Shown here piece after piece: positions 10,476-10,701 of a stretch of 64,000 nucleotides of DNA; within the stretch, counting starts at the first letter, position 1; each line of letters begins with the position of its first letter. This DNA is from a virus. Its lineage: Duplodnaviria > Caudoviricetes. The stretch lies in the IMG/VR virus record IMGVR_UViG_3300022746_000016, positions 64,001 through 128,000 of that record. The stretch is one strand, 5' to 3'. The position numbers were made by a program, and so were the translations under genes. The notes below the pieces were generated by a model, which made no database searches, had not been told where the DNA came from, and was given only the letters and a program-made list of their open reading frames with translations.

Positions 10476-10510
10476 AAAAAACCCTCGAGATTCACATCTT
10501 CGAGGGTTTT
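10476..10510 (-). terminator. Intrinsic terminator of a putative attenuator
   Basis: AAAACCCUCGA...UCGAGGGUUUUUU; its 5' arm can alternatively pair with 10541-10553. Confidence 0.8.
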
Positions 10511-10530
10511 GGTAAAGAGACTAAGTTCTC

Positions 10531-10662
10531 TTACTTCTTCTTACCAAAACCCTTCGTATCCTCAATCGCATAGCCAGAACCTTCTACAAATGATGGGCGT
10601 GTGCTTGTCCATCCGTTATTCAACGGTAGCTGTTTATGCATATTGGAACAAGAGAGTCTCAT
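10531..10662 (-). CDS. Putative attenuator leader peptide (43 aa, all 20 amino acids)
   Basis: MRLSCSNMHKQLPLNNGWTSTRPSFVEGSGYAIEDTKGFGKKK; 3' codons form the antiterminator strand. Confidence 0.65.
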   Translation of the reverse strand: MRLSCSNMHKQLPLNNGWTSTRPSFVEGSGYAIEDTKGFGKKK

Positions 10663-10672
10663 AGTAGAAAGA

Positions 10673-10701
10673 ATTATATCCTAAAAGTTGATTGAAGACA
10701 A
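10673..10701 (-). promoter_or_regulatory. sigma70-type promoter for the leader (near-leaderless mRNA)
   Basis: TTGTCT-N17-TATAAT, 10 nt before the ATG. Confidence 0.65.

Follow-up and report, generated by a model that had tools for sequence, protein, structure and literature searches.

A putative leader-peptide attenuator containing every amino acid at the head of a phage tRNA array

We analyzed 64,000 nucleotides (nt) of viral DNA (bases 64001-128000 of the 166.5-kb IMG/VR virus record IMGVR_UViG_3300022746_000016; hereafter the window), in which a large block of transfer RNA (tRNA) genes is preceded on the same strand by a compact cassette consisting of a promoter, a short open reading frame (ORF) and an intrinsic terminator. 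The DNA polymerase of this phage shares 53% identity with those of T4-like cyanophages and marine viruses, and we thus regard it as an uncultured T4-like myovirus; it has no close relative in the phage collection, DNA searches of which with the region returned nothing in either near or distant mode. The reasons why phages carry large tRNA arrays, and how these are expressed, are debated, the ideas put forward being codon-usage matching and escape from host tRNA-cutting nucleases. Here we propose that the cassette is likely a ribosome-mediated (leader-peptide) transcription attenuator heading the array, with a peptide selected to hold every amino acid.

Array and cassette lie on the minus strand (Table 1). 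ARAGORN predicts 30 tRNA genes, all on this strand, which apart from one with anticodon CTA serve 19 amino acids, and Rfam also gives 30 tRNA hits; compared by hand, the two lists have a union of 32, short of the 35-tRNA island counted earlier by a model that saw only the letters (the sequence-only reading). At the position of the leader promoter, aligned relatives have TTGAC or TTTAC, a spacing of 17 nt and TA(T/G)AAT. The ORF that follows has no Shine-Dalgarno sequence, and its last codons hold a segment (arm A) that is perfectly complementary over 13 bp to a segment beyond the stop codon (arm B), which in turn covers 8 of the 11 nt of the 5' arm of the terminator. The fold of the leader RNA has a z-score of -5.1 against 200 shuffles. 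Promoter, ORF, arms and terminator were all found where the sequence-only reading had placed them, together with the pairing it had noticed between the last codons and the terminator, and both of its counts hold, i.e., the set of 20 amino acids is complete by codon 35 and the first 37 codons include 33 different ones. Contrary to its statement that the ORF is missing from the ORF track, the ORF is listed at a cut-off of 25 amino acids. Its description of the ORF as near-leaderless needs some adjustment: the ATG stands 10 nt past the -10 box in the window and its clade, while the spacing in most relatives is tighter, at 6-7 nt (26 of 43 unique leaders). Given standard sigma70 geometry, an ATG only a few nucleotides past the -10 box implies that the leader mRNA is leaderless.

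Table 1 Features of the leader cassette and the tRNA array in the window
Feature	Position	Strand	Details
Late-promoter-like CTAAATA	10726..10732	(-)	Upstream of leader promoter; several relatives with exact TATAAATA
Leader promoter, sigma70-type	10673..10701	(-)	-35 TTGTCT 10701-10696, 17-nt spacer, -10 TATAAT 10678-10673; 10/12 matches
Leader ORF	10531..10662	(-)	ATG 10662-10660, stop TAA 10533-10531; 43 amino acids, all 20 kinds
Hairpin H1 in ORF	10610..10629	(-)	Codons LPLNNG; CCGTT / loop GAAT / AACGG, lengthened by RNAalifold
Arm A, antiterminator 5' strand	10541..10553	(-)	AGGGTTTTGGTAA; codons of C-terminal K-G-F-G-K
Arm B, antiterminator 3' strand	10503..10515	(-)	TTACCAAAACCCT; AAAACCCT common to terminator 5' arm
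Intrinsic terminator	10476..10510	(-)	AAAACCCTCGA ... TCGAGGGTTTT then T6; segment alone -18.6 kcal/mol
Three extra sigma70-like promoters	10434-10406, 10335-10307, 10226-10198	(-)	12, 10 and 11 of 12 matches
boxA-like motif in pre-tRNA leader	10144..10159	(-)	GATCTTTAAAAATCTG; 12/16 to E. coli rrn boxA plus spacer
tRNA array, predicted regulated target	1366..10046	(-)	ARAGORN, Rfam; first gene tRNA-Gln (10046-9973)
tRNA-like element, partial, Rfam only	8564-8618	(-)	38.2 bits; missed by ARAGORN at default settings
tRNA-like element, Rfam only	4734-4804	(-)	53 bits; missed by ARAGORN at default settings

A full set of amino acids in so short a peptide is seldom reached by chance. At the composition of this phage, all 20 kinds are present in 1.2% of random 43-mers and 0.6% of random 40-mers, and real protein windows are complete in 76 of 12,630 cases at 43 amino acids and in 41 of 12,780 at 40. 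Only two of the 435 ATG-initiated ORFs of 30-50 amino acids in the 166.5-kb genome are complete, the leader and one that is antisense to tRNA genes. The 33 distinct codons of the 43-codon leader are reached in 0.74% of 6,622 phage-ORF windows of the same length (mean 25.9), and 41 of its 43 codons can be read by the phage's own tRNAs, compared with 84% of the codons in phage ORFs.

Relatives of the cassette were recovered from two independent collections. The first consisted of 80 loci gathered via the neighboring dCMP deaminase gene and searched with a profile of the cassette, which is present in 14 of them; six of these end within ca. 170 nt of the cassette, and in all eight that reach far enough it lies immediately before tRNA-Gln, with which the array opens, at a distance from the deaminase gene that varies from ca. 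0.3 to 3.6 kb. The second was collected by a 15-letter motif beside tRNA-Gln and yielded 112 matches, followed by tRNA-Gln in 44 cases, by tRNA-Ile in eight and by no tRNA in 60. A same-strand cassette accompanies 43 of the 44 tRNA-Gln matches, the lone exception having only 62 nt of upstream DNA. The sequence-only reading had suggested looking for a conserved ORF position before tRNA arrays, and both collections have it. It had also named decay of the frame in relatives as grounds for rejection, and here the frame persists: in family 1, the group to which the window's leader belongs, the ORF is intact in all 30 unique ORF-to-terminator sequences (46 loci, 37-43 amino acids), and all 133 gap runs of a codon-blind nucleotide alignment are multiples of three. 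Variation at third codon positions (0.80 bits) is barely higher than at the other two (0.73 and 0.64), suggesting only weak constraint on the peptide sequence. No family-1 cassette was found within the available locus DNA of the nearest deaminase relatives (L002-L005 and L008, 89-93% identity), although farther relatives have one.

The amino acid content of these peptides is far more uniform than their sequence would lead one to expect. Among 25 distinct peptides of family 1, 19 hold all 20 kinds and six hold 19, whereas shuffling residues within alignment columns leaves a mean of 2.35 complete peptides and a maximum of eight (5,000 trials), a shuffle that ignores shared ancestry and serves as a descriptive control, not as a probability. 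Both amino acid and codon diversity, for which the sequence-only reading had asked a comparison with controls, are thus far above them. Cysteine is spread over four alignment columns, valine over 12, glutamine over six and tyrosine over four, and nearly every peptide keeps each of them; as we read the alignment, selection acts on the presence of a residue and not on its position. In the collected loci, all 20 kinds are present in 33 of the 339 unique ATG-ORFs of 30-46 amino acids whose end lies no more than 450 nt ahead of a tRNA on the same strand, compared with 13 of 3,883 elsewhere (Fisher p = 6e-27, a statistic uncorrected for relatedness), and at least six of those 13 are leader homologues in loci holding no tRNA.

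Arrays that open with tRNA-Ile have no family-1 cassette but a different small ORF of 33 or 39 amino acids, again complete. A wider collection, obtained with a 16-letter motif, comprises 95 arrays with at least 400 nt upstream (68 unique upstream regions), in which an ORF of 25-60 amino acids holds 20 kinds in 34 regions and 19 kinds in 10, a census that takes only ATG starts (the first ATG after a stop) and may include chance ORFs. Inspection added four intact leaders (L098, L172, L174 and L261) and three with a GTG start (L052, L214 and L202); no ORF of this kind is present in L275 or in about 18 further upstream regions, some of which start with a lone tRNA-Met before the main array. At E ≤ 1e-3 in BLAST, the complete leaders fall into at least four unlinked multi-member clusters and several singletons; the clusters have faint motifs in common (QPE, W) and may represent a single, very old family. 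Completeness, judging from these ORFs, outlasts recognizable sequence similarity. Some leaders carry a Shine-Dalgarno sequence and a GTG start in place of the leaderless AUG and are still complete, and the three-part layout of ORF end, antiterminator and terminator recurs in 12 of 12 representatives of the diverse families, with differing stem sequences. The leader peptide has no family in Pfam or PHROGs and only five unnamed relatives among 5.8 billion protein clusters; tblastn with the peptide returned chance hits only (E of 1 or more), a DNA search of the phage collection with the tRNA-Gln gene gave 17 weak hits only, and no cultured phage bearing the design was found. In Acinetobacter phage Acj61, the one cultured T4-like phage inspected, the ORF before the array has 60 amino acids of 18 kinds and no terminator was seen in the sequence inspected, and the design is thus not universal in T4-like phages.

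Both alternative RNA structures are conserved as well. The A:B hairpin is possible in 30 of 30 family-1 sequences (-15.8 to -27.9 kcal/mol), and so is the terminator (-14.1 to -21.1 kcal/mol), in which B pairs with A' and which has bases in common with A:B. The RNAalifold consensus consists of A:B and H1. Across the alignment, 97.7% of the cells are paired for H1 with A:B and 97.1% for H1 with the terminator, compared with 30-58% in controls with slid partners, and both-side changes occur at four and six pairs, respectively. These are the mutually exclusive, covarying stems that the sequence-only reading had anticipated, and they covary across families. H1 by itself has seven pairs in family 1 (96.2% of cells paired, two pairs with both-side changes), its variants are both compensatory and register-shifting (CCGTT/AACGG, CCACT/AGTGG, CTACCATT/ATGGTAG and AGCTAC/GTAGCT), and it may be a transcription pause hairpin. 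In L017, whose peptide ends in EGWDG, A and B have been rewritten together and the terminator stem is shorter but kept. Two further elements were considered and dropped, i.e., a region 1 pairing with arm A, which appears only in the window's own full-length fold and not in relatives, and a second hairpin (GATGG/CCATC) after H1, which by eye is not kept in L018 or L033.

The spacing of these elements is equally regular. A terminator is present in 42 of the 43 unique leader regions (none was found for L203), and in all 42 the segment that pairs with B in the truncated transcript ends 0-19 nt before the stop codon, while arm B starts 18-34 nt past it. Given that the footprint of a ribosome extends from about -15 to +12, a ribosome located at the stop or on the codons just before it would cover A and not B. 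We postulate that transcription by host RNA polymerase begins at the sigma70 promoter and yields an mRNA that starts with the AUG or no more than a few bases before it; a ribosome would then translate the 43 leader codons. A ribosome that keeps pace and sits on the last codons or the stop would mask A, B would then pair with A', and transcription would stop at the U-run of the terminator. If a shortage of a charged tRNA makes the ribosome lag or stall at any earlier codon, or if no ribosome is loaded, A:B would form first and polymerase would read through into the tRNAs. Because all 20 amino acids are sampled and the array supplies 19-20, such a device would report general decoding capacity rather than that for one amino acid, and would feed back on the phage's tRNA supply, i.e., slow decoding by ribosomes probably raises the phage's output of its own tRNAs. 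Translation of the leader ORF, the direction of the switch and its sensitivity to a single codon are what we infer from this arrangement.

A more ambitious version, which we hold tentatively and find slightly easier to doubt than to accept, would make the element a universal sensor of decoding capacity. A stall at any codon, be it caused by host starvation, codon-usage mismatch, anticodon nucleases or other tRNA-targeting defenses, would turn on the full phage tRNA set, and the boxA-like element before the first tRNA would protect polymerase from termination along the 9 kb of untranslated array. Such an element could be both an inducible counter-defense and a self-tuning supply, ancient and widespread in uncultured T4-like freshwater phages. 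The reverse logic, whereby translation of the leader promotes read-through because the ribosome hinders the terminator and tRNAs are made only while translation is active, receives very little credence from us: in all 42 leaders the 5' arm of the terminator begins beyond the ribosome footprint, and the ribosome would cover arm A, whose masking favors the terminator. It does have a precedent in terminators located a few bases past a stop codon, which are repressed by the terminating ribosome according to the available part of PMC4824070.

Several points weigh against a leader-peptide attenuator of this kind. Translation, termination and read-through are all read from sequence, and the column shuffle and the Fisher statistic take no account of ancestry. 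The full-length thermodynamic fold of the window's leader has the terminator formed next to a shortened A:B, so that the outcome would depend on kinetics, and in the window's clade arm A occupies the stretch 8-20 nt ahead of the stop, where a ribosome at the stop would mask only part of it. Leader and array do not always agree, as the leaders of L209 and L235 lack valine and glutamine, respectively, though their arrays carry those tRNAs, and the window's leader contains alanine, for which ARAGORN finds no tRNA. Each amino acid occurs once or a few times, unlike the runs of regulatory codons in classical attenuators, which leaves sensitivity to a single codon putative; moreover, the predicted default without a ribosome is read-through, unlike in trp. 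The last two points, i.e., weak per-codon sensitivity and read-through by default, together with the conserved leaderless geometry (ATG 6-7 nt past the -10 box in 26 of 43), would also suit an attenuator that senses general ribosome supply or transcription-translation coupling (leaderless initiation capacity, or polymerase speed as in pyrBI) and not tRNAs, its varied composition merely avoiding bias. We consider this unlikely, though it is the alternative we take most seriously: avoiding bias needs neither all 20 kinds in 32-49 residues nor regained cysteine, valine and tyrosine, the target is a pan-amino-acid tRNA set, and leaders with Shine-Dalgarno sequences and GTG starts stay complete.

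A further point against the proposed attenuator is that the family-1 peptide is partly conserved (LPL..GW..RP, AIE.D..GFGK), which could mean a peptide-specific role, though some of the conserved part doubles as RNA stems. Within family 1, residues W18, R22 and P23 vary little or not at all. The stretch CACGCCCA (10601-10594, minus strand), which holds the T/S-R-P codons, is nearly invariant across the family, third positions included. Such conservation would fit a nascent-peptide arrest element, in which the W...RP segment, presumably akin to known arrest peptides, stalls the ribosome on a small molecule or factor in the manner of TnaC or SecM and thereby sets the switch. Since the other leader families do not share the motif and conserve nothing beyond completeness and RNA layout, and completeness would be left unexplained, we regard an arrest element as highly improbable.

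The last objection to the attenuator concerns how much of the array it would control. In the window, the 429-nt gap between terminator and tRNA-Gln contains three promoters that bypass the switch, in agreement with a caveat of the sequence-only reading, and at least one promoter lies between terminator and first tRNA in 22 of 42 relatives; the array would often be independent of the switch. In the window the predicted switch governs only transcripts begun upstream of the terminator, from its own promoter and a possible late promoter, i.e., its gating is partial. No sigma70-like promoter lies between terminator and first tRNA in the other 20 of 42, of which 17 have a gap of 44-52 nt that is mostly occupied by a conserved motif, and array transcription in these 20 must therefore cross the terminator. 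The additional promoters would likewise be expected of an ordinary small early gene with its own terminator, one of the promoter-plus-stem-loop cassettes that are common in T4-like variable regions, with completeness and A:B being incidental and the array transcribed from other promoters. In keeping with this, the region is a mosaic of short promoter-bearing modules, the peptide is partly conserved, and the nearest deaminase relatives show no cassette in the available DNA. We nevertheless judge an ordinary gene to be very unlikely, given that completeness persists over deep divergence and across BLAST-unlinked families while rare residues shift position, that it is the head of the tRNA array, and not the deaminase gene, to which the ORF is invariably linked, that those 20 arrays have no other promoter, that A and B covary independently of A', and that neither Pfam, PHROGs nor the five unnamed cluster relatives offer a known protein.

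Upstream of the leader promoter, a late-like CTAAATA lies where the sequence-only reading had it (ca. 10725). Of the 43 unique leader regions, 12 have the exact form TATAAATA within the 140 nt that precede the leader ATG, and we take both forms to resemble the T4 late-promoter consensus. Loci with TATAAATA upstream of the leader include L091, L136, L098, L172, L104 and L087, and in L087 and L100 it stands 6 nt before the ATG. In transcripts from late promoters the family-1 ORF would be internal and without a Shine-Dalgarno sequence, and we speculate that these might read through by default.

The conserved motif ahead of the first tRNA resembles rrn boxA, the NusB/NusE-binding site (UGCUCUUUAACAAUUUA; available parts of PMC2724277, Table 1, and PMC2176067). 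The match extends over 12 of 16 positions in the window, 13 in 31 of 43 relatives and 14 in L037, most of these loci having been collected by this motif, and its second core base differs from that of rrn (GUUCUUUA vs GCUCUUUA). In most arrays the conserved form GTTCTTTAAAAATTTG precedes the first tRNA by 25-35 nt, a distance that grows to 70-115 nt in a few, among them that of the window; the motif is seen at the same place in L017, L018, L031, L033, L035, L037 and most other arrays. As it sits just downstream of the start sites of the inserted promoters it should be transcribed, and it may recruit Nus factors that carry polymerase through the long untranslated array. The same position led us to reject it as a promoter, and a likeness to the MotA box proved inconsistent.

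A search of RNA libraries matched 24 runs, 23 of them recorded as RNA. Contigs of four RNA-library runs labelled as freshwater metagenomes contain the whole queried stretch. Four runs were compared in detail, all as contigs, and only one of them (X1) is among those with the whole stretch; its 7.6-kb contig spans it at 100% identity and may be DNA or the window's source sample. In X7, a 513-letter contig of a relative (28 other letters) lies on 10219-10702 and bridges the terminator, with a loose end at 10702 that is presumably sequencing adapter, and contigs of X6 and X5 cover 10506-10682 and 10040-10453, respectively. Contigs of this sort show neither starts, ends, strand nor level, say nothing on termination or read-through, and their uncovered parts are not evidence.

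The composition of the arrays is broad. Of 13 arrays with 26-31 tRNAs in the locus, 11 have 19-20 amino acid kinds and the other two have 17 and 18, and this broad set mirrors the complete leader. An exact match of rosters, in which the kind missing from the leader is the tRNA missing from the array, was tried and abandoned, as it fails in L209, L235 and L033, loci that may be truncated. Within the window, the tRNA-Asp (5566-5640) and tRNA-Ser (6943-7029) predicted by ARAGORN are not in the Rfam list. The tRNA with anticodon CTA (5301-5375, minus strand) is labelled 'Pyl' by ARAGORN and is a potential amber suppressor; such a tRNA is also found in L137 and L094. The array also includes a tRNA-Thr with anticodon AGT (3180-3255, minus strand) and a tRNA-Ser with anticodon AGA (8006-8095, minus strand), adenine at the first anticodon position being unusual in bacteria except in tRNA-Arg ACG. 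Outside the window, ARAGORN predicts a permuted transfer-messenger RNA-like gene (G000:C1:25253-25632, minus strand) with the tag peptide ANDNVWALAA.

If the attenuator works as we propose, these phages gauge the quality of translation and tune their tRNA output accordingly, and classical attenuation, in which a single amino acid governs the enzymes of its own synthesis, would broaden to cover every amino acid and to act on the tRNAs themselves. Owing to canonical sigma70 promoters and a length of less than 250 nt, the element is directly testable in E. coli or in reconstituted translation even though the phages are uncultured, and the leader could serve as a compact reporter of global decoding stress.

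In the literature searched, which did not extend to supplements and subscription journals, we came across neither a leader-peptide attenuator preceding tRNA genes nor a leader with all amino acids. The nearest published case is the trn operon of Anabaena sp. PCC 7120, an accessory array of ca. 26 tRNAs that is switched on when translation is impaired (PMC10272220, PMC8421152, both as far as their available text goes) and is controlled by a protein repressor, TrcR (PMC10272220); a word search of the available text of PMC8421152 returned no 'attenuat', 'leader' or 'terminator'. Like the phage array under the control proposed here, it is a stress-linked tRNA array, but it is repressor-controlled and cellular. 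The element falls outside the Rfam leader families (Trp_leader, His_leader, Leu_leader and Thr_leader), among which only His_leader scored at all (19.6 bits on the plus and 16 bits on the minus strand, compared with a gathering threshold of 49, at E-values of 1.5-8), and at permissive thresholds Rfam gave only sub-threshold chance hits to rli38, PyrR and His_leader, and no T-box.

T-box riboswitches resemble the phage leader in that a choice between terminator and antiterminator responds to tRNA charging, yet they bind one specific uncharged tRNA, involve no translation and precede synthetase or amino acid genes, whereas the conserved open frame of the phage leader (133 of 133 gaps in threes) points to the ribosome as its sensor. 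The 44-codon leader of E. coli pyrBI depends, as the phage leader is predicted to, on how closely a ribosome follows polymerase over some 40 codons and not on a run of special codons; there polymerase pauses at low UTP and a close ribosome prevents termination, while the phage geometry predicts that a close ribosome favors it. The closest kin in design are the enterobacterial leader attenuators (trpL, hisL, leuL and pheL, and the multivalent thrL and ilvGMEDA), which have in common with the phage leader a short leader ORF, an intrinsic terminator and a base-sharing antiterminator that is masked, in the phage by prediction, by the finishing ribosome. In both, codon content relates to the product, in the phage only in a generalized form (20 kinds in the leader, 19-20 in the arrays). 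The enterobacterial targets are biosynthetic enzymes and the phage target is a block of tRNA genes; the enterobacterial leaders have runs of one to three kinds of codon and the phage leader has all 20, once or a few times each. Moreover, most of the phage leader mRNAs would be leaderless, the relatives show no conserved region 1, and an untranslated transcript is predicted to read through, all unlike the enterobacterial attenuators. We thus view the phage element, its function being deduced from sequence, as a variant of known leader-peptide attenuation that is new in target, breadth, start and predicted default.

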